From positions 496,001 to 560,000 of the forward strand of contig OY253685.1 of NCBI GenBank assembly GCA_958009085.1: a stretch of 64,000 nucleotides of DNA, in the 5' to 3' direction. The notes under the pieces were generated by a model that made no database searches, was not told the DNA's origin, and was given only the letters and a program-made list of their open reading frames with translations. Each line of letters starts with the position of its first letter. Within the stretch, counting starts at the first letter, position 1. Positions 28,207 through 40,984 of the stretch are shown here, in pieces. Position numbers and translations under genes: made by a program. This DNA is from Protoeuglena noctilucae (taxonomy: Eukaryota).

Positions 28207-28546
28207 TCAGTTGTAGTACATCTCAAGGCCCATGCCGTCGTGAATCTCGTAGTCCTGCGAGCGCGGGCCGGCGAAGACGTCTTTGAGCAGCAACCAAGTC
28301 AAACTATCGCCTTGAAGCCGCGACGCACGCCGCGGACCGCCCGGCGCGGGCGGCGCGGCCAGCGAAGCACACCTCGAGCGTAATGTGGTCCTTGTAGACC
28401 GTGTACCACTTCTGGATCCGAATCTTTTCCGGCCTCGTGCCCGTCTGAGCTGCCACGAGCTTCTTGAGGTCCCCAATCGTGTCGTCCTCGTTGCACTTGA
28501 CGCGAATCTTCTTTCCCAGACGGTCGTTCAGGACCACCTCAATCAT
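28207..28546 (-). CDS. UBL5: Ubiquitin-like protein 5 (Hub1), 2 coding exons
   Basis: [58 protein letters not shown] / [15 protein letters not shown], with the diagnostic C-terminal YY. Confidence 0.97.
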
Positions 28547-29196
28547 CGCGACCTGAGGCAGCGAGGGCACGGCGGCGGGTCAAAGAGGGTCGTCTTACCG
28601 ATGGGAGCGCCCTGCGACAGGCCCACGCCGCGGCGCTGAGTTGCGAGTGGCAGCGCCCTTCCAGACCCCATCGCGTGGCAGCCCTGGGCAGCCCTTTGTG
28701 AAGCTCATGCAATGCCAGCATGGCAGAATACCATGCCACGTGACACGGGCGCCCTCTCTCGTACCTTCCCGCAAACAGGATTGGGGGTCTCCCGGTGTTG
28801 CGTAGGCCCCGCGCCGGCTCGGGGACGTGTCTGCACGCGGACGCCGGACGAGCGACGCAGGCGCGCCATGTAGACCCCATGGTGGGCCAGAGAGGGGGAA
28901 ATGGGGCTCAGGTTGCCCTGCCAGTCGTCCCCTTCTGGCGCGATGTTGCCAGCGCGCGGCTGGGTGAAAGCTGAGGGCTGCGATGTCTGCTGCGTAGTAC
29001 TGGTACATACACACGTCGTCACCTGCCCCCACACCAGACGCGCTAGGTCGATTGCACCCCCACGAGCGTGCAGAGCAGCAGGGACTGCATCGCTTGGCTT
29101 CCGCAAGTGACCTACCGGTACAAGAGAGGACACTGGGAACGTCAGCGGCCGGTTGTGACACTGAGCTCGTCGCTTGGGCTCAGGGCGTAGGGCGCC

Positions 29197-31009
29197 ATGG
29201 CCAAGGCGGGCTTCTTGGCCCAGGACCTGCCGTCCGAGGATGAGTCCGATGAGGACTACAACCCTTTGAAGGACAAGGTGAGGGAGCGCGTCGAGCTAGG
29301 CGGGGCCACGCGACGAATCGCCCGGTTCAGTGGAGCTCGCGCGGCAACGGCAGTCTCCGCGTGCGCAGACGAACCCAGAGCTCGCGGAGCAGCGGAGGCT
29401 TCTCAAGCAGGGTCTCCTCGACGAAGGAGTGCCTGTGGTGGCAGGTGAGGGGCGGTCACGCTGCCCGCAGCCTGCCTAAAGCTTGCAAGGCCCTCTTCAA
29501 CGCTCCCGACCGCTTTCGCAGAGGGAGATGAAGAGGAGGAGCTGAATCCATTGTCAAGGGCTGCGAAGCGCCGGGCTCTCGCGGCGGAGGTGTTCGAGAA
29601 GCTGCAGCAAGCGGCAACAAAGCGGGGCGCGGGCGTGGGGACGGTGGGCAGGATGTACAGGTGCGATGCGTCAGAGCTGGCGCATTCCCTGTAATTCTGA
29701 TGACATGCACGCCAGCTGGCTAATGCAGGACGTGCCTATGTGGTGGAATGGGGCACAAGCCACTCCCGCTGCCGTTGCGTGCTTGCAGGGAGGTCCTGAT
29801 GGAGCGCGCGGCGGATAAGCCGGCGTTGGATTTCGGCGATGACGCTTGGAAGCTGCCGCTCGGGCTATCCCAACGCAAGCGGAGGCAGCCGTTGGTGGTA
29901 CGGGCCTGGTGCATTTGCAGTGCTGAAGCATGATGCCCTTTGCATTTATCTCTGACAACGTTTGCTCCCGCTACACCCGCAGGATCCGAAAGCGCTGTCC
30001 GTGTGTGCGCCGAAGGAGCAGCGAGCGAGTCTGGGTGAACACACCACTGACAGTGATGCGGCAACTGCCGGACCCTCTGCCGGGCCAAACGACGCTTTAC
30101 CCGCCCGCGCGGCGCTCCATCCGCGGCTGGCCGACGCCAAGCGCTGCGCCGTGACTCCGGAGCTGCTCGCTGCGGCCCGCGTGGCGCCGGGCCGCGTGCC
30201 CTTAGCTATGTCTGTGACGCGGCATCGGGAGGTGAACAAGGTCACCGTGCAAGAGGAGCGCAAGTTCGCGGGTGAGTGGCGTGGGGGATTGATTGAGTCG
30301 TGGTGCAAGACATGGTGACGAATGGGGGCTTTGTTGCACCAGTGTTTGCTGCACACACATCGCTCTGCATCCTGTGTGCTGATGGCACATGCATCGTTTG
30401 TGGCTGCAGGGGAGACGGTGATGATCGAGAAGCGCGTGGACAGGGAATCGAAGGAGGCCGTCAAGGCAGCCGGACCGGCGCCGGCCCCGCTCACGCCGCT
30501 GCAGGTGGGAGGCGGGGCATCGCTCGCCCGTTGCCGCATCGCTGTCCCGCTGGTCAGCCGGGCGCGCCATCATCCGCGCCGCTTTCGCAGAAACTGGTTC
30601 GTTCGCTCAAGAAGGGCAACAAGGTGTCGATCGTGGATAAGACGAAAGCGGATTGGGAGAAATGGAAGGCGCAGCAGGGGCAGCACATCCAGGAGGAGCT
30701 GGAGACGTACAAGAAGTCGGGGACCAAGGTGAGACGTTATAATTTGTTCATTTAAAAGAGCCGGTGGCGTTTTTGATGCGCAGACAGTGCGGGCGCAGGC
30801 AGTGCGGTGGCCACTCCTGCCATCTGTGCACTGCCTGCACGCTGCGCTTGGCTGCGCTTTGGCTCTTCCCTGCAGCATTTCGTCATCACTCTGTCTCTCC
30901 GCAGTATCTCGACCGGCAGGACTTCCTCAAGAGGGCCGAGCTGCGCGAGTACGAAATCCAGAGGGACGCGCGGCTGGCGTCGGACGTCCGCACGCGCGGC
31001 CGGCTCTGA
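29197..31009 (+). CDS. CFDP1: BCNT-domain protein (CFDP1/Swc5, SWR1 complex subunit)
   Basis: N-terminal PSEDESDEDYNP, KFAGETV, and BCNT-C domain KVSIVDKTKADWEKWK...IQEELETYKK...YLDRQDFLKRAELREYEIQRDARL. Confidence 0.88.
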
Positions 31010-31563
31010 TCCTCGATCGGACGTTGCAAACTGGAGCTGCTTTGCAAATGAGTATCCGCATTTGCCGTGGCGCGCGCATGAAGTCAGAACATGCCGTCGC
31101 TGGCGCAGGGCATTGCGCCTTTCTGCTCAGGGAGCAGGCTGCTCTCTGCACAGCCCGATAGTCACCCGTTCGCGGGCTTGCTTGCTTTGCGTTGTCACAC
31201 TACTGGGATTTGCGCGGAACTTCAACAAAAGCCGCACCGTCTCGCTGCATCCGAGCGCGAGTGGGCGCTCAGGGAGGCGCGCAAGGCGGGGCACAAGACA
31301 TCGCAGCAAAAGAGAAGCACCAAATGAAATGGCGCGACAAGTGAGGTGGCAAAGGGACACCGGCAATGCACAAAGGACGCCAGGGCGAGCGAGGCGGCTG
31401 CGGGCCGGCGCATTGGCGCATTGGCGCATGGCCGCGCTATCACCAGCACTGCGCTGGTGGCCAAGCGCTCGCTAAAAGCTCAAGGCAGGAAGACGAGGCA
31501 CGCTGCCTTGCCTCCGTCCGCACATCCCATCTGCCCCCGCGCACCACCCGCGCTCCCTGCAGC

Positions 31564-33477
31564 TCAGTGCAGCTCGATGTACCCAGCGCTGCTGAGGTCC
31601 TGGAAGCTGAAGTAAATGTGCCCTGAGGTCGTGAGCCGGCCCGCGGGCACCCGGCCGCCCGAAGAGGCGCCCTTCGCGTCGTGGTGCCCCTGTGTGTGCT
31701 CGTGCTCGGCTGCATGGGCACCGTTGTTGTTGACATCGACCGCGACTTGGCCCGTCGCGTCGTGCGTCACCTCCTGATGGCCCCAAGCAGCCACGGGGTC
31801 CACCTCCCCGGCTGCGTACGCCGGGGCCTCCCACATGGGAGACGACGCATCTTCAGTGACCGCTGACGCGTCCCAAGCCATCGCAGGCGCGGATGCCTCC
31901 GCACCCTCCGCCCCGCTCCCAGCCCACGCTGCAGCGCTAGTGTGCGCCGTCTCAGCACCGCTCTCCGCCCACTCCACAGCGCTCCCATGCGCCGCCTCAG
32001 CACCGCTCTCCGCCCACGCCCCAACGTTCCCATGCGCCCCCTCAGCACCGTTCCCGGCCCAAGCCACACCACTCCCATGCGCTGCCTCAGCATCGCTCTC
32101 TGCCCACGCCATAGCACTACCGTGCTCTGCCTCAGCACCATTCCCGGCCCACGCCTCAGCACCATTCCCGGCCCACGCCACAGCGCTGCCGTCCCATGCG
32201 CCGCTGTGGCTGAAGGTGGGCAGCGGCACAGCCTCGGTCTCCGCCCCCACCTCCGCACCCCACGCGCCGTTGTGGTGACTGTACTCGTACTCGCCACCGT
32301 CGCCACCAGCATGCCCGTAGCTGTGGGCATCGCCACCAGCATGCACGTAGCTGTGACCGTCGCCACTGGCGTGCACGTAGCTGTGGGCATCGCCGTGGTC
32401 AAAGCTATGCTCGTGGTTGCCGTACGCGTGGCTGTGGTCGTGCCCATAGGCGTGGCTGTGGCTGTGGTCGTGGCTATCACCGTGATCCACGCTGAGCCTC
32501 TGGCCGTACCCGTGACTGTGGTCGTAGCCGTGGCTGTCGCTGTCCTCGCCAGTCGTCAGCGCCTTCGCCGCGTCCGCAGCCATCTGCGACACCAGGGCCG
32601 CCAGCTCCTCAGCCTGCGCCTCCGTCAGAACTGCTTCCACCTCCTCGGCCTCGAGCGAACCCGCAACGAACGCCGCTGCCACCCCCAGCGACTCCTCCTC
32701 GTCATCGACAGCCCCCTCCGAAGCATTATGGGAGTCCTCCGAAGCCCACAGCACCCTTTCCCACTTCCCCGCGCCCGACGAGTGACCCTCTACCCCCCCT
32801 TCCCATGCCCCCGCACCGGCCGCCTCCCCACCCCACACCGCACCCTCCGCCCCACCGCCCCTCTCTTCTCCCTCCATCGCCATCGCGTCCAAATCGTCCA
32901 GCGCACGCTGCATGTGCCCCATCGTCTCCGCGTTTGCCGGCTCCTTCGACCCTCCCTCGCGCGCACCCCACGCGCCCACCCCGCCCGCCCCCGGCTCGTG
33001 CTCCGCCCCCCACGCCACGTCGCGCCAGGTGGCCTCTTCCAGAGACGGCCCCTCTCCCAGTAGCTCTTCCGCGGACATGCTCACGAGGAATCGCATTGGG
33101 CGCACCTCGTCTCGCTCCAATGCCTCCACGCCTGACACCGCACCCGGGCCCTCCGGGCTCTCTGTGGGCGGGGCCCCTGACGTCAGGCCTGCGTCAGGGG
33201 CGCTGGGTGCCGCGGGGCCACCCGACGCGGCGTCCTTGACGATGTGGGAGCCCGTGACTGGGGACCAGCCCAGCGCAGACTCGGCCGGAGCCGCGTGGGT
33301 CATCCCCGCCGCCATCGCACCGGCAGCACCCGCCACGCTGCCCATCGCGCCACCCTGCATCTCCGCCGTCGCTCCGTCCGACACGCCCCACTGCGGGTCC
33401 CGTGCCCCGGACGCATTGCTTGCAAACGCCCCCGTAGCATCCGGGCCCTGGGCGACGTTGGGCTGGGTTGACGACAC
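31564..33477 (-). CDS. 637-codon acidic Ala/Gly/Trp/His-rich terminal exon, probably a C-terminal extension of the upstream starch branching enzyme
   Basis: The long open frame starts exactly at a strong acceptor (ttgac...ttccctcccctgcag|GTG, phase 0) rather than at an ATG. It contains 15-aa and 10-aa repeats. Confidence 0.7.
   Translation of the reverse strand: MSSTQPNVAQGPDATGAFASNASGARDPQWGVSDGATAEMQGGAMGSVAGAAGAMAAGMTHAAPAESALGWSPVTGSHIVKDAASGGPAAPSAPDAGLTSGAPPTESPEGPGAVSGVEALERDEVRPMRFLVSMSAEELLGEGPSLEEATWRDVAWGAEHEPGAGGVGAWGAREGGSKEPANAETMGHMQRALDDLDAMAMEGEERGGGAEGAVWGGEAAGAGAWEGGVEGHSSGAGKWERVLWASEDSHNASEGAVDDEEESLGVAAAFVAGSLEAEEVEAVLTEAQAEELAALVSQMAADAAKALTTGEDSDSHGYDHSHGYGQRLSVDHGDSHDHSHSHAYGHDHSHAYGNHEHSFDHGDAHSYVHASGDGHSYVHAGGDAHSYGHAGGDGGEYEYSHHNGAWGAEVGAETEAVPLPTFSHSGAWDGSAVAWAGNGAEAWAGNGAEAEHGSAMAWAESDAEAAHGSGVAWAGNGAEGAHGNVGAWAESGAEAAHGSAVEWAESGAETAHTSAAAWAGSGAEGAEASAPAMAWDASAVTEDASSPMWEAPAYAAGEVDPVAAWGHQEVTHDATGQVAVDVNNNGAHAAEHEHTQGHHDAKGASSGGRVPAGRLTTSGHIYFSFQDLSSAGYIELH
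31900..32545 (-). repeat. Coding tandem repeats: 45-bp units (HGSAMAWAESDAEAA-like) and 30-bp units (GDAHSYVHAG-like), plus an HSHGY-rich tract
   Basis: Visible in both the translation and the DNA (repeated ctcagcacc...gcccacgcc and gtagctgtg). Confidence 0.85.
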
Positions 33478-34096
33478 CTGCAGGGGAGGGAAGCAGAGAA
33501 ACAGTCAAGTCACAGACGCGGCACGAGGATATGATAATAGAATCGTGACATTTATGGCTATGACTAGGAAGCTATCGCCGACAAGCTCGCGGTTTAGGCA
33601 GGCCTGCCCCATCATTGCGGCGGTTGTAGCGTAGGGGGACGCCGACCCAGGAAAGGGCGCGGGTGTCACGAGTCGGGCTATCGGATCCCGGAAAGGGCAC
33701 ATTCAAACGGCCCGGAGGAGCGCAGCGGGAGCTACCGGGCGGCGCCGTGGGAACCCAGGCATAGGAGAGTAGGCGACTAGGAGTAGGGATCGAGGTATCA
33801 AGTGCAGAGTGCTGGGTGTGGCCTGCCCAAAGCGAGCCAGGCCTGGATGGTCATCAGTAGATCAACGCAAGACATGAGATAGCAGGCGAGTGAGGCAGGG
33901 AGCCCTCGGGGTGCATAGCGCACACGCACCGCTGTCGCGACCCTCACACCACGACACCTGGGCATTAGTGCCGGTCACAAGCCCCCGGCAAGGCAAGTGC
34001 GCGCGAGAGCGCTCACAACAGACCACCCGGGTGTACCGCAGCAACACACAAGGGCCTCCGTAAGGGCCGTGAGCAGGACTCAGTTGTGAGCAGGGC

Positions 34097-37000
34097 TCAG
34101 TTGTGGTTGCCGTTCCAACCCACCTGTCCCCCCTTGTAACCCCAGAAATCGTCGCCCCAGACGTCGGCATTGGCATAGACGACCGCGGAGCGCGCGGGCG
34201 AGAAGACGGACATGCGGCAGGGCCGGCCGTTGAGCTCCTCTGGCTGAGTGAAGTGGTCGGCGTCGTGGGCGATGAGGCCCGCGCCCCCGAACCGCCACTC
34301 CGAGTTGTCCATCACCACGCGGTACTTGCCGGGGGTGCCCACGCCGATCTCCAGGCCCGTGAAGTCGGTCCTGTGGGGGGAGGGGCGAGGGAGCAGGGTT
34401 ACTTTTACTTGGCAGGTCAGGGTGGGGCACGGTGGGACATGCATATGGCATGGGGTGACGCGCTTGTTGGGGCAGCGAATGGCGATCAACGGAAACCAAA
34501 CATCGTCTTTGGAATGACAAGTACTCGTGTGTTACGGTGCGTCAAGTGACGTGCGCTGCAGCACCCCTTGCCACTCACTTGGTGTTGAAGTTGAACACGA
34601 AGATGAGGGGGCCGCGCTCGGCGACAATGACCTTGCGCTCCTCGTCAATGGTCGACACTGCGGGGATGGAAGTAAGAGATAGCGATGGGCAACCAGCGAT
34701 CGCAAGTGGCCGTTTGCGGCGGTGTCCTACATAGCGTTGATCCCGTCGTCCCTCATGGGCGATGCTCCAGTTGCCATAACATATGCAGTTGTATGATAAT
34801 GTCATCGTCAACTCTGCAATATGAAAATCGCTCACCGACTTGGTGGGGGTCGGAGGAGAAGCCCGTCTTCTCGTCCAGGGCCATCAGCGCCTTGTCCCAC
34901 TCACGCAGGTGCGTGTAGCGCAGGTGACCGCTGTCCACTGCGGAACACGATTGAGAGGAAGGGAATGAGGATAGCTTCGGTACTGAGGTGAGGAGCCGGC
35001 ATGTGTTGCGCAAGCAGGGTGGGCACCAACGCTTCAGTCACTGCCACCACCACAAGTCACAGGCATAACCCCACCAACCCCACCGCATCATTGACACTTG
35101 CACTCACCAAGGGACCACTGGCGCCGACAGAACTTGAACGACCACCCGTTGCCCTCACGTGGGAAGTCGAGCCACTCCGGGTGGCCGAACTCATTGCCCA
35201 TAAAGCACAGCCACGCCTCGCCGCCAATCGACATGGTGATGGCGCGGATCATCATGTGCAGCGCCAGGCCGCGCTGCGATGGTGGTGGGAACAGGAGCGG
35301 TAGGTGTGAATAACACCAAGACCAAGTCTTTGCAACTGGTGAATGCAATTGATCATATTTTCTATATGAATGCATATACATCAGTGCAACGGTACTGGTG
35401 CTCTGCTACCAGGGCGCCACACCCCATCACCAGCCCTCACCTGCACGACGGGCGAGGGCTCGACTAAGGCGCTCATGCCGTCGTAGATCTCCTTGTCGAA
35501 CAGCCACATGGCGATGGTCTTGTCCCCCACCAGCGCCTGGTCGTGGGACTCGGCGTAAGCGACCGTCTTTTCGGTGTAGCGGCGGTTGCACAGCGAAGAG
35601 ACCAGGTCGATCATGCGCCAGTCCTCGTCCCTGCATTGCACGGATCGAACACCACGTGTCAGCAGCGCTCGTCATACCCACGCGCAACATATACACTTTC
35701 TGAAACACCCTTTGTCGGCATTTGTCTAACATCCACCTAGATCGTGCAAGCAACCACGCAGATTGAGTGCAATATGTAAACAAGCATCGACACTCACTTG
35801 ACGTGCTTGAGGATCTTGATCCAGTGGTCGGGGATGGCCATGCCCAGGCGGTAGTCGAACCCGACCCCGCCCTCGCTCACGGGGCGGCACAGGCCGGGCA
35901 TACCCGACACGTCCTCCGCGATCGTCACGGCGTCGGGGACCAGGCGGTGCGCGAGCTCGTTCGCCAGCATCTGCGAGGGAGACGATGCAGAGTGCAATTA
36001 ATGAGAAGCGACCGTGGGGAGGGGTACGGAACGCAATGGTACGCAGCGCAATGCAGGTGTGGTGGAGAGACGTGGAGAGTGCCAAAGAACTGAGACGTGC
36101 TGCGGCTTGCCCGACGCTGCTGCATATCCCTCCGCATGCGTACAACAGCTGCAAGCATCGCAACAAGCTATGGACGTCGCAAAGGCGACTCGCCAGGTAG
36201 GTGACGGCCTCGACATTGGTGGACGGGGAGAAGTACTCCTTGTAGTTCCCGGAGAAGCCCACGTTGATGCCGTGGTGGTGGTAGAGCATGGACGTGACGC
36301 CGTCGAACCGGAACCCGTCAAACTGGAACTCCTCCAGCCAGAAGCGCACGTTGCTGAGCAGGTAGCGCAGGACCTCCCAGTTGCTGTAGTTGAAGAGCCG
36401 CGAGTCCCATAAGCTGTGGTAGCCACGAGCGCCATTCAAAAAGTAGTTGTCCTGCTCCGCCTGGCCCAGGTCCAGCCCCGCCAGGCCGTCCTCGGTGTTC
36501 TTCGAAATGTGGCTGTGAACCACGTCCAGCAAGACGCGGATGCCCATCCCGTGGGCCTGCGCATAAGAGGCTCTGTGCAGTGAGCTGCAGCACCATTTGT
36601 GCACCTCCCAAGCCCCGCTGCAGTCGCGTCGTAAGCGCACTCGCCTTGTCCACCAGGTATTTGAGGTCGTCGGGCGTGCCGCTCCGGGAGCTGACGGCGA
36701 AAGGCGAGGTGACGTGGTACCTGCGCGAGCCGGCCACGCCAGCAATGCAGGGGCACCCCGACTGCGCCCGCGGCAGCTTTGGCGCCGGATGTCACTGCAA
36801 TTAAAGCATGTATGCCGCCTCCGCTCACCCGAACGAGCCATAGTAGACGTGCTCCATGACGGCCATCAGCTGCACGGCATTGTAGCCGAGGTCCTTGACG
36901 CGCGGGAGGATGTCGTCTGCGAACTCGCGGTACGTGTGGACACGCTCCTCCTCTCCAGACATGCCGACGTGCGACTCGTAGATCCTGCGGCGCGGCGCGG

Positions 37001-38115
37001 GCGGGCGCGATCAGGCACATGCCGATCAATTGCCAAGCACTAGCCGCGCGCGGCGCGGGCGACGCTGCTCGCCTCAGGCTCTTGCTGCGCGGGGGGCGGG
37101 AGTTTTTGAAGCGATAGATCTCCGACTGCGGAGGGTCCCAGTAGACCGAGTCGTAGAGAACGTTGCCGGGGAGCTGCTTGGCCCTCTGGATCCACGCTGC
37201 GAGCGGCGAAGGAGCGAGATGGCTCGGAAACGGCACCAGACGAGCGTTAATAGCTAGAACAACCAATCGAGGGGCTCCGCACCGGGGAATCGGTCCACCG
37301 TCCACCCATCGTGGTGGCGAATCCGGATCTTGACCAGCGAGTCGTGGGGAATGGCGCCCGGCGGAAGCTCGCAGCTCCAGACGCCAAACTGGTCGCGAGT
37401 CATCGGCTCGCCCTTCCAGTCGTTGAACTCCCCCACGAGCCACGCTTCGGCCGCGGGGGGACACCACTCCCGGAACACGATGGTCCCGTCCGCCTTCTTG
37501 CTGAACCCGAACTTCTTGTAGCCCGCCGCGAACTCCTCCAGCGACTGTTCGTATGTCTCGATGTTGGAGAGGGTGTCGACGAAGTGCTTCCACTGCGCGA
37601 CCGGCGCGGGGGCCGCGATTGCGGTGGGCAACGAGGCGTGGGCATCGCGCGCCGCGCGGGGCGGGAGGCGCGCGATGGCCCCACCGCCGCACCTGGTACT
37701 TGAGATGCGCTTCAAATCCCTCCAGATGGGGGTCCACGGACAGCATGGCGAGGCCATCCTCCGTCCAACCCTTGGGAAGGACCCAGGTCTGCTGCGCCTG
37801 CAGCGGCAACCTCGTGTCCTCGTGACGGCACGTGAGAGCAAGTCCGCGCATCAAGAGTCAGGCGCGACCAACTCCCGGCCGCGAGGGTGCAGGCATGCGC
37901 CATATTCCTGCCCTGCCCCGCAGGAGCTACGGCACGCCCAAGCAGCTCGAGGGCGCCGCGGCAGCGCTCACCGTCGCGCCCACGCGAGTGGGGCGCTTGA
38001 CCCATCCAGCCGTGCTCCTGCCTGGCGCGAGAGTTGGCCTCGCGCGGACGGCCCCTTGCCTCTGAGGGCGAGCGCCCGCCCGGAGCACCCCGCTGGCCCC
38101 CAAGACGCACAGCAT
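34097..38115 (-). CDS. SBE: 1,4-alpha-glucan (starch) branching enzyme, GH13, class I-like, with putative plastid transit peptide
   Basis: FREWCP...[85 protein letters not shown]. First exon (38115-~37972) is Arg/Ala-rich like a transit peptide. Confidence 0.95.
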
Positions 38116-38764
38116 GGCTTCAACCCACGATTGAGCCGATATGCTCTACGCGGCGGTAGGGAGCTCCCCCAGACGCGAGGGCGAGTCTGGCCGCTTTTTA
38201 TCCTCCGACGGAAGCCCCGCGGCGCAATCCCGAGCGTCGCGGACGTCGGCGTGAATTCGCCGTGTCGAGAGGCGAGACGTTCTCGTGGCTCTGCGCCCTG
38301 GCGAGGCGGCACGCGCCTCGGAAAGGCGTTCCGAGACGGAGATGTTTCAGGCAAAACATGGGGTGGCGACTGCGGCAGGGACCCGACGCGCGAGGCCCGC
38401 TGGACTCGCATATGCACCATCAGTACGCCTCCGGCTGTCGCAGGTCTCGTCTCCTGTTTCCGGAACCTTGGACCCTTGCATGCGCGCGGCCCTTTGCGCT
38501 CGTAGCAGGCAATCGCTTGGGCAGCGCCGCCGCTTCCTGACGCGGAGAAGGTAGCTGCAAGTCGGCCGCGTTGCTTGCGAGCCCCTCTGGCCTCGGCGTC
38601 AGATCGCCAGCGCGAGCATTTCTTTCGCATCCCGACAGGTCGCCGCGGGAAGGCCTTTTCACCCCGTCGCCGCCCTGTCCCTTTGCCGCGCCGTGAGGCA
38701 GTCTGAGGATCGGCCGCGGTCGCGGCGTGGGGCGATGTCCCCGTAGCGGGGCGGTTGTTGCACG

Positions 38765-40984
<2,220 letters not shown>

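Follow-up and report, generated by a model that had tools for sequence, protein, structure and literature searches.

We analysed a 64,000-nt stretch of the Protoeuglena noctilucae genome (GenBank assembly GCA_958009085.1, contig OY253685.1, positions 496,001 to 560,000; hereafter the window, whose own numbering is used throughout), which carries on its minus strand a gene for a starch branching enzyme of type 1 (SBE1) that ends in two different ways. One messenger RNA stops within intron 13 and encodes a short form of 753 aa, while the other splices this intron out and encodes a long form of 1382 aa, in which the same catalytic body (745 aa) is followed by a 637-aa acidic, tryptophan-studded tail. 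Both 3' ends were found in every RNA run that was mapped. We give roughly even chances to the proposal that the tail tethers SBE1 at the surface of starch or of the pyrenoid, leaving the short form untethered, a proposal whose functional steps we infer throughout.

RNA was available as contigs only, from four runs of 12 listed (two samples, one study; the runs containing the gene are marine metatranscriptomes), mapped on 30900-38400; contig depth is a poor measure in such data, and coverage holes and contig depths prove nothing. Of the eight listed runs outside this mapping, four contain every sequence word of the region and are probably the DNA source, and four under the same species label contain almost none. 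All 13 predicted introns were present as joints of the predicted length in 4/4 runs, including the 646-nt joint 33477/34124 with its CT..AC ends, whose shorter side is 30 letters, six of them ambiguous, as expected at the branch of two contigs. The acceptor consists of a pyrimidine tract and CAG directly before 33477, and the donor is the only one of the 13 with G at +4 (ten have A and two have C), a departure that fits a leaky site. Alongside the spliced form, all four runs contained an unspliced contig starting at 34150 and ending at 33690, 33690, 33725, and 33689, respectively, and, when the contig depths of both forms are added up, the junction contig accounts, as a rough estimate, for 0.60, 0.34, 0.52, and 0.42 of the total. 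The original prediction, a reading of the sequence that preceded this work, had placed a phase-0 donor at 34123, a stop at 34097, and an acceptor at 33477 opening 637 codons, and had proposed two isoforms from this choice; all of these coordinates proved correct, and both isoforms are represented in each run. That prediction had also named a separate first exon for the tail as part of the case that would speak against it, and no joint into 33477 is listed in the four runs except the one from 34124. A gene start of the tail's own inside intron 13 was likewise rejected, as the ATG frames there stop within 13-65 codons.

The short form ends inside intron 13, because 33478-33688 has no cover: depth arithmetic, which reproduced the bin depths almost exactly, gave zero cover from the short contig end (33689 at the lowest) to the tail exon. 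We therefore rejected intron retention as its source, and what was found, namely a fixed intronic RNA end, an otherwise uncovered intron, and an exon that is also spliced, is what characterizes a composite terminal exon. These observations fit intronic polyadenylation, with the poly(A) itself presumed since contigs cannot show tails, and no A-run lies in the genome at the short RNA end (~33690). Thus, the short form is unspliced as had been proposed, but it is not the retained intron of that proposal, and polyadenylation near 34000, which had been listed as a finding that would count against the splice, does have a counterpart in the end at ~33690, which occurs alongside the splice. Within its final 22 aa the short form has three Trp amid Gly, Asp, and Asn, and splicing raises the terminal Trp count from 3 to 23. 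A 17-nt tandem duplication (2.2 copies, 95%) lies across the short-isoform stop codon at 34069-34105. In both isoforms the RNA end that reaches furthest has TTGAA 12 nt before it (33702-33706 and 31221-31225), and the gene region contains no TGTAA; TTGAA is a possible 3'-end signal of the lineage, albeit a weak one chosen after the fact.

The body common to both forms is encoded by 13 catalytic exons (38115-34124). Pfam domains comprise a CBM48 domain (PF02922, E 6e-14) and, above the cut-off, the GH13 catalytic domain (PF00128) and the C-terminal all-beta domain (PF02806); the catalytic Asp, Glu, and Asp motifs are intact at aa 388, 444, and 511, and for exon 7 the best relatives of solved structure in the PDB are rice branching enzyme chains. 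Exon 1 resembles a plastid transit peptide in composition and may thus direct the enzyme to the plastid, and the intron behind it (37971-37798) is a joint in the RNA. The protein is 59-62% identical over ~685 aa to four SBE1-type references (algal and plant, named or clustered), compared with 49-52% for a paralogue on another contig (C20), which is the one other close SBE found in the genome (26.3 Mb and 27 contigs searched). It is the nearer of the two to these references, and by sequence we place the gene among those for a starch branching enzyme of type 1 (GH13), with branching as its predicted activity. A tail frame was looked for after the C-domain of the C20 paralogue and none was seen. 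A third, distant GH13 or branching-enzyme-like gene with an Alpha-amylase_C domain (L030, G000:C2:1246869-1250138) is barely alignable to the window enzyme. In a quick tree of 42 proteins, which holds no SBE2 rows and so places the enzyme only among SBE1-like matches, the window enzyme and three relatives formed a clade (SH-aLRT 100) beside core chlorophyte sequences; from this position we guess that the alga belongs to the Pedinophyceae. Three of the 12 constitutive introns have GC donors (36193, 36644, 37072), all spliced in the RNA, and a relative (locus L007) also has a GC donor and apparently shares intron positions with the window gene.

The tail is composed of Ala (21%), Gly (16%), Asp+Glu (15.5%), His (6.8%), Trp (3.3%), and very little Lys+Arg (2.7%), with a pI of 4.48, and composition and repeat analysis bore out its first description as acidic low-complexity sequence with spaced Trp, a His/Tyr block, and an end of ordinary complexity. 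We infer from codon bias that it is translated and hence protein-coding. Two-fold codons end in G/C in 157/191 cases, vs 369/618 in local non-coding DNA (p 2e-11) and 241/268 in the catalytic exons, while one antisense frame of the tail is also high (82/97), and the longest any-frame open reading frame (ORF) in 300 base shuffles averaged 260 codons with a maximum of 534, vs 637. Tandem arrays of 45 nt x 5.7 (31905-32160) and 30 nt x 3.2 (32300-32394) run through it, and among six core 15-aa repeat units, which are not independent of one another, the Trp codon is invariant and pN/pS is 0.46.

Searches with the tail returned next to nothing. Pfam gave no family (the best hit was DUF6174 at E 0.25), PDB and Atlas searches gave no convincing relative, and among 1.84 billion representatives only the tail itself and one weak match were recovered, the latter (P0132) being rejected as an unrelated repeat; a further entry (P0133) differs at one residue in the G-rich stretch of the tail, which may be a sequencing error. 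Among shorter proteins 0/4907 candidates matched, near-length and longer proteins of the 90% collection lying outside that search, and in the alga's own genome the single match among 13 candidates was the tail itself. Trp arrays of period 15 elsewhere in the genome were at chance level (12 off-locus matches vs 8 in the reversed control). The lack of relatives, together with the lower GC3 of the tail (0.78 vs 0.90 in the catalytic exons) and the freedom with which SBE1 C-termini vary in length and sequence, would suit an extension of low complexity that became an exon recently, expanded as its repeats were duplicated locally, and is tolerated and translated but does little. We consider this unlikely, given 637 open codons, a strong acceptor, and substantial use in 4/4 runs, the repeat pattern with its invariant Trp, and the cost of nearly doubling a plastid enzyme.

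Structurally, the tail is predicted to be disordered except for two acidic helices and a terminal strand (Table 1). Single-sequence AlphaFold2 models of the tail had mean pLDDT values of 48.5 and 38.5, the latter for aa 300-637, where the last 25 aa were the best predicted part; one helix, at aa 183-206 (32860-32931), reached pLDDT 78, and the Atlas model of the tail scored 0.39. Of the 21 Trp in the tail, 20 are followed by Ala, Gly, Asp, Glu, or Ser. In architecture the tail fits pyrenoid linkers in the wide sense, which have repeated stickers between disordered spacers, and Rubisco binding by it is hypothetical.

Table 1. Features of the SBE1 gene and its two 3' ends (window positions)
Feature	Position	Strand	Remarks
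Exon 1	37972..38115	-	48 aa, Arg/Ala/Gly-rich, Asp/Glu = 0; from composition and the following intron in RNA
Remaining catalytic exons	34124..37797	-	every intron a joint in 4/4 RNA runs
Alternative donor	34118..34126	-	CAG/GTGGGT, first intron base 34123, phase 0
Intron 13	33478..34123	-	646 nt (other twelve 86-223 nt); contains short-isoform 3' end
Short-isoform end	34097..34123	-	8 read-through codons + stop at 34099-34097
Short-isoform 3' UTR (untranslated region)	33690..34096	-	from contig ends; TTGAA 12 nt upstream of end; no A-run downstream
Alternative last exon, coding part	31564..33477	-	637 aa; stop ends at 31564
Tail aa 1-130	33088..33477	-	Ala/Gly/Ser/Pro spacer, predicted disordered
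Tail aa 131-255	32713..33087	-	acidic; one helix predicted; contains 7 Trp and the tail's only W[RK]xx[LIVA]
RNA-uncovered stretch	32772..32994	-	4/4 runs; 57% G; 3 G-quadruplex-type motifs
Tail aa 256-312	32542..32712	-	acidic helical segment aa 286-309, pLDDT 71-86
Tail aa 313-405	32263..32541	-	93-aa block of His/Tyr/Gly/Ser/Asp with 10-aa repeats; 22 His, 9 Tyr
Tail aa 406-570	31768..32262	-	165 aa; contains 12 Trp, most in the setting Ala-Trp-small residue, and six 15-aa core units
Last 25 aa	31567..31641	-	of ordinary complexity; contains the F-x-F-[QE]-D-L-S motif and one predicted strand
Long-isoform 3' UTR	31209..31563	-	contig ends 31209-31266; head to head with BCNT-domain gene

The His/Tyr block raises the possibility that the tail self-associates under the control of pH or metal (Zn/Ni/Cu), His/Tyr and Trp stickers condensing the enzyme with no fixed anchor, so that condensation would serve storage or switch-off as stromal pH or metal changes. 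The calculated charge of the block swings from +4 at pH 5.5 to -14 at pH 8, and His-Tyr repeats of squid beak undergo pH-triggered phase separation (PMC6884462). However, the calculated net charge of the whole tail, -43 to -82 over pH 5.5-8, opposes self-condensation, and the relatives' extensions have no His block (two His in the P0123 tail), which makes this distinctly unlikely.

One part of the tail exon is uncovered by RNA in all four runs (32772-32994). Contig ends are ragged on both sides of it, with no joint and no loose ends listed; a hidden intron was rejected on these grounds and because there is a single poor acceptor, and the hole is likely a technical dropout, a full-length long message across it being presumed. 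The hole and the depth of the 3' contigs, ~2-3x that of the junction contig (59.6 vs 30.1, 34.8 vs 18.3, 17.9 vs 5.83, and 7.8-9.6 vs 4.8), would also be expected if the 3' part of the tail (32771-31209) were largely a separate transcript or if the long message broke in the G-rich stretch, leaving the full-length 1382-aa protein rare. But the stretch is G-rich with quadruplex motifs, as well as ragged and jointless, no usable acceptor exists and the frame is open straight through, and neither holes nor depths are decisive in these data; we regard such a split as highly improbable.

Two known kinds of starch- or pyrenoid-associated sequence were considered for the tail. First, the original prediction had likened it to ESV1/LESV proteins, whose domains have confidently predicted conserved antiparallel beta-sheets and ~40 aromatic residues (PMC10219597; for the conserved beta-sheet fold also 10.1101/2023.06.09.544376 and PMC8343138). 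As membership this analogy fails: the repeat region is 8.5% aromatic and has no predicted fold, the single-sequence model of aa 300-637 contained no such sheet (a weak test, as no alignment was available), and no ESV1/LESV homology emerged among the 1.84 billion representatives, a search that included no direct pairwise comparison with ESV1. A short ESV1/LESV motif had no match in the genome, which does not show absence. By sequence and model, then, the tail is not an ESV1/LESV domain, though it may work like one. Second, a test for the Chlamydomonas-type [DN]W[RK]xx[LIVA] motif failed, with W[RK]xx[LIVA] occurring once in the tail and twice in the whole long protein, never terminally; the tail is not a Chlamydomonas-motif protein as judged from its residues, though here too it may act similarly.

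Relatives of the enzyme place the tail in context. Among the best 120 of 7991 exon-7 homologues, 93 aligned to the C-domain (a few offsets being imprecise), and the sequence beyond it had a median of 56 aa and a maximum of 473 aa; a short acidic tail is common in these 93. That branching enzymes end soon after the beta domain, as had been assumed, therefore needs qualifying for short acidic tails, while the 637-aa length does stand out: SBE1 tails as such are ordinary in these sequences, and it is the length of this one and its switch that are unusual. The prediction had further suggested looking for algal orthologues with similar tails, and long extensions do exist in two relatives, neither homologous to the window tail. 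One clade member (P0016/P0123) has a fixed tail, the 473-aa maximum, which is charged and carries the motif GF[FAG] five times. A module in the P0016 tail matches repeats at a DUF7067 locus of the window genome (L010; E 2e-8 in a two-target search), whereas the window tail matched these repeats only at E 0.05-0.1 with negative best-domain scores, vs 2e-8 and 2e-6 for P0016. At that locus (G000:C3:1552977-1556123) a DUF7067 match precedes two or more repeats of a similar module, which have diverged, and a charged run resembling a coiled coil; DUF7067 occurs in glucan water dikinases, and L010 may be one.

P0005 (loci L007 and L008 of one organism), which at 76.6% over 539 aa is the closest relative, has an SBE1 frame that stops 49 aa past the beta domain, after which a second frame runs to 2239 at L008 with 27/27 two-fold codons ending in G/C. 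This second segment is reachable by a phase-2 splice from 1778 to 1966 or by a -1 slip. At L008 1871-1950, and identically in L007, tandem slippery heptamers directly precede the SBE1 stop, and a GC hairpin and a -1 frame that stays open come after them; these are the only two in-frame slippery heptamers in 592 codons, both fall within the last four codons, and they use a Gly codon present at 0/58 other Gly positions, while the hairpin showed no extra stability over shuffles (z -1.02). A programmed -1 ribosomal frameshift in this nuclear algal gene is a lead offered by these sequence features. A third relative (P0006) is a fragment without a C-end, a profile search for further clade members returned P0005 only, and a metagenome scan returned two loci of one organism. 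Two proteins of 1713 and 1757 aa (P0073, P0114) fuse pullulanase-type PF11852 and PF17967 to a branching enzyme and sit on a long separate branch of the tree.

The motif F-x-F-[QE]-D-L-S lies near the stop in both the second segment of L008 and the window tail. It is weakly shared, its score being reached by 35/5000 shuffles and 3/504 control ORF ends, and a shared terminal motif is a lead at most. Such recurrence, and the position of the motif in the best-predicted last 25 aa, would suit a tail whose role is confined to its short elements: the terminal strand and both helices would bind to a starch synthase, to a dikinase, or to the enzyme itself, with everything else acting as a long spacer. 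Against this stand the control ORF ends that score equally, the choice of the motif after the fact, the lack of a significant match at the P0016 end, and the occurrence of the pattern only once in the genome; we hold it to be very unlikely.

The proposal to which we give even chances, tethering, would work as follows. One nuclear gene for a plastid type-1 SBE would give rise to two messages through competition between the weak donor at 34123 and a 3'-end site ~430 nt into intron 13, both the competition and the polyadenylation being presumed. Intronic cleavage would yield the 753-aa enzyme, free in the stroma, and splicing the 1382-aa enzyme with an identical catalytic body and a disordered acidic tail bearing ~21 spaced Trp. 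The predicted masses of the mature proteins are ~80 and ~143 kDa. The tail would then act as a multivalent tether fixing SBE1 at the surface where starch is shaped, either the granule surface, via Trp-glucan stacking, or the pyrenoid matrix-starch interface, via partitioning with basic matrix proteins, and how much branching activity is anchored relative to free would depend on the choice of splicing, with Trp valency moving from 3 to 23. We divide the even chances about equally between these two options. A role in placement is the most economical one because a long, acidic, aromatic-studded, disordered arm is attached to one of two otherwise identical enzymes. In support are both 3' ends in 4/4 runs, coding-type codon bias, the purifying pattern in the repeats, the spacer-and-sticker architecture, and same-clade relatives (SH-aLRT 100) that also extend SBE1. 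According to a 2026 preprint (10.64898/2026.07.31.742166), a localised type-1 SBE shapes the starch sheath in Chlamydomonas while stromal SBEs branch elsewhere, which provides a strong analogue for the pyrenoid option, one that the original prediction did not mention; SBE1 and SBE4 are part of the pyrenoid interactome in a review (PMC13655443). The granule-associated long SBE forms of bean and wheat also count in favour. LCIB-family genes at two loci of the genome suggest a CO2-concentrating mechanism, though they imply no pyrenoid.

Several points weigh against tethering. The tail has no detectable relative, so that its conservation cannot be shown, and the relatives' tails are non-homologous to it; no ESV1/LESV sheet is predicted; and it is strongly acidic (net ~-82 at pH 8) with the one W[RK]xx[LIVA] to set against the Chlamydomonas Rubisco-binding motif. 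The RNA is that of one study, as contigs, with a hole inside the tail that leaves a continuous long message to be presumed. Pedinophytes vary, one having a starch-plated pyrenoid and another none (PMC12574857), and the alga's placement among them is itself a guess. A wider version of tethering, in which a change of C-terminus lets the clade obtain from a single gene both an anchored, starch-shaping SBE1 and a free stromal one, with a new acidic Trp-sticker module as the anchor for the pyrenoid or granule surface and with the switch rebuilt differently (splice or intronic end here, possibly a -1 frameshift in L008, a fixed tail in P0016), is in our judgement improbable.

Known systems share single aspects of this gene. 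In its three domains and catalytic motifs the window enzyme is like rice BEI (PDB 3amk/3vu2/7ml5) and green-algal SBE1, and it differs from type-1 SBEs in having two alternative C-termini, the longer extending ~654 aa past the beta domain. The Chlamydomonas localised SBE (10.64898/2026.07.31.742166) is type-1-like, its placement shapes starch, and it is contrasted with stromal SBEs; four Rubisco-binding motifs are credited with its targeting, and the sections covered make no mention of an isoform switch, whereas the window tail is acidic, has one motif, and is optional. Orthology between the two enzymes is presumed. Longer granule-associated forms are described for bean, where LF-PvSBE2 and PvSBE2 arise from one locus by alternative first exons and differ at the N-terminus (review PMC9266299), and for wheat SBEIc, which has a double SBE domain for which trans-splicing was proposed (PMC2834961); unlike the window gene, neither adds a C-terminal disordered repeat tail. 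A C-terminal tail has also been noted in Chlamydomonas GBSS (PMC4919380). Composition aligns the tail with ESV1/LESV, both being aromatic and acidic, and Trp could stack on glucan, but the tail has half the aromatic density, is Ala/Gly-rich, and has neither a predicted fold nor relatives. EPYC1, SAGA1/2, CsLinker, and PYCO1 place repeated Trp or helical stickers in disordered spacers (PMC7673724, PMC13655443), whereas the Chlamydomonas motif needs W[RK], Trp in the window tail mostly precedes Ala, Gly, Asp, Glu, or Ser, and the module is fused to an enzyme. In a literature search that did not reach most subscription papers, no algal SBE turned up whose last exon is both long and alternative, which does not prove absence. 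For the RNA mechanism, secreted and membrane IgM heavy chains are the familiar case, in which a weak donor and an intronic 3' end compete, the outcome being either a longer end or a short free one; in the window gene the long end is instead a 637-aa disordered exon on a plastid enzyme. The RNA mechanism is ordinary and the payload, an orphan disordered tail, is unusual, its function being conjectural.

Around the gene, a BCNT-domain gene (30297-31009, plus strand) is transcribed such that its RNA meets the long-isoform 3' end at ~31210-31230, a tubulin-tyrosine-ligase-family gene lies upstream (39557-40141, plus strand), and a ubiquitin-like gene is found at 28304-28579 (minus strand). Elsewhere in the genome, the Rubisco small subunit gene of this alga has two exons.

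How algae separate plate-curving branching at the pyrenoid from branching in the stroma is an open question, also for attempts to build crop pyrenoids. Here one and the same catalytic body occurs both with the tail and without it, a natural pair that permits a direct test of the effect of placement. If the tail does nothing, the gene would exemplify alternative 3' ends clearly but in an ordinary way; if it binds starch or matrix, it would be a targeting module that is new, portable, and not related to CBMs, to ESV1/LESV, or to the known Rubisco motif.

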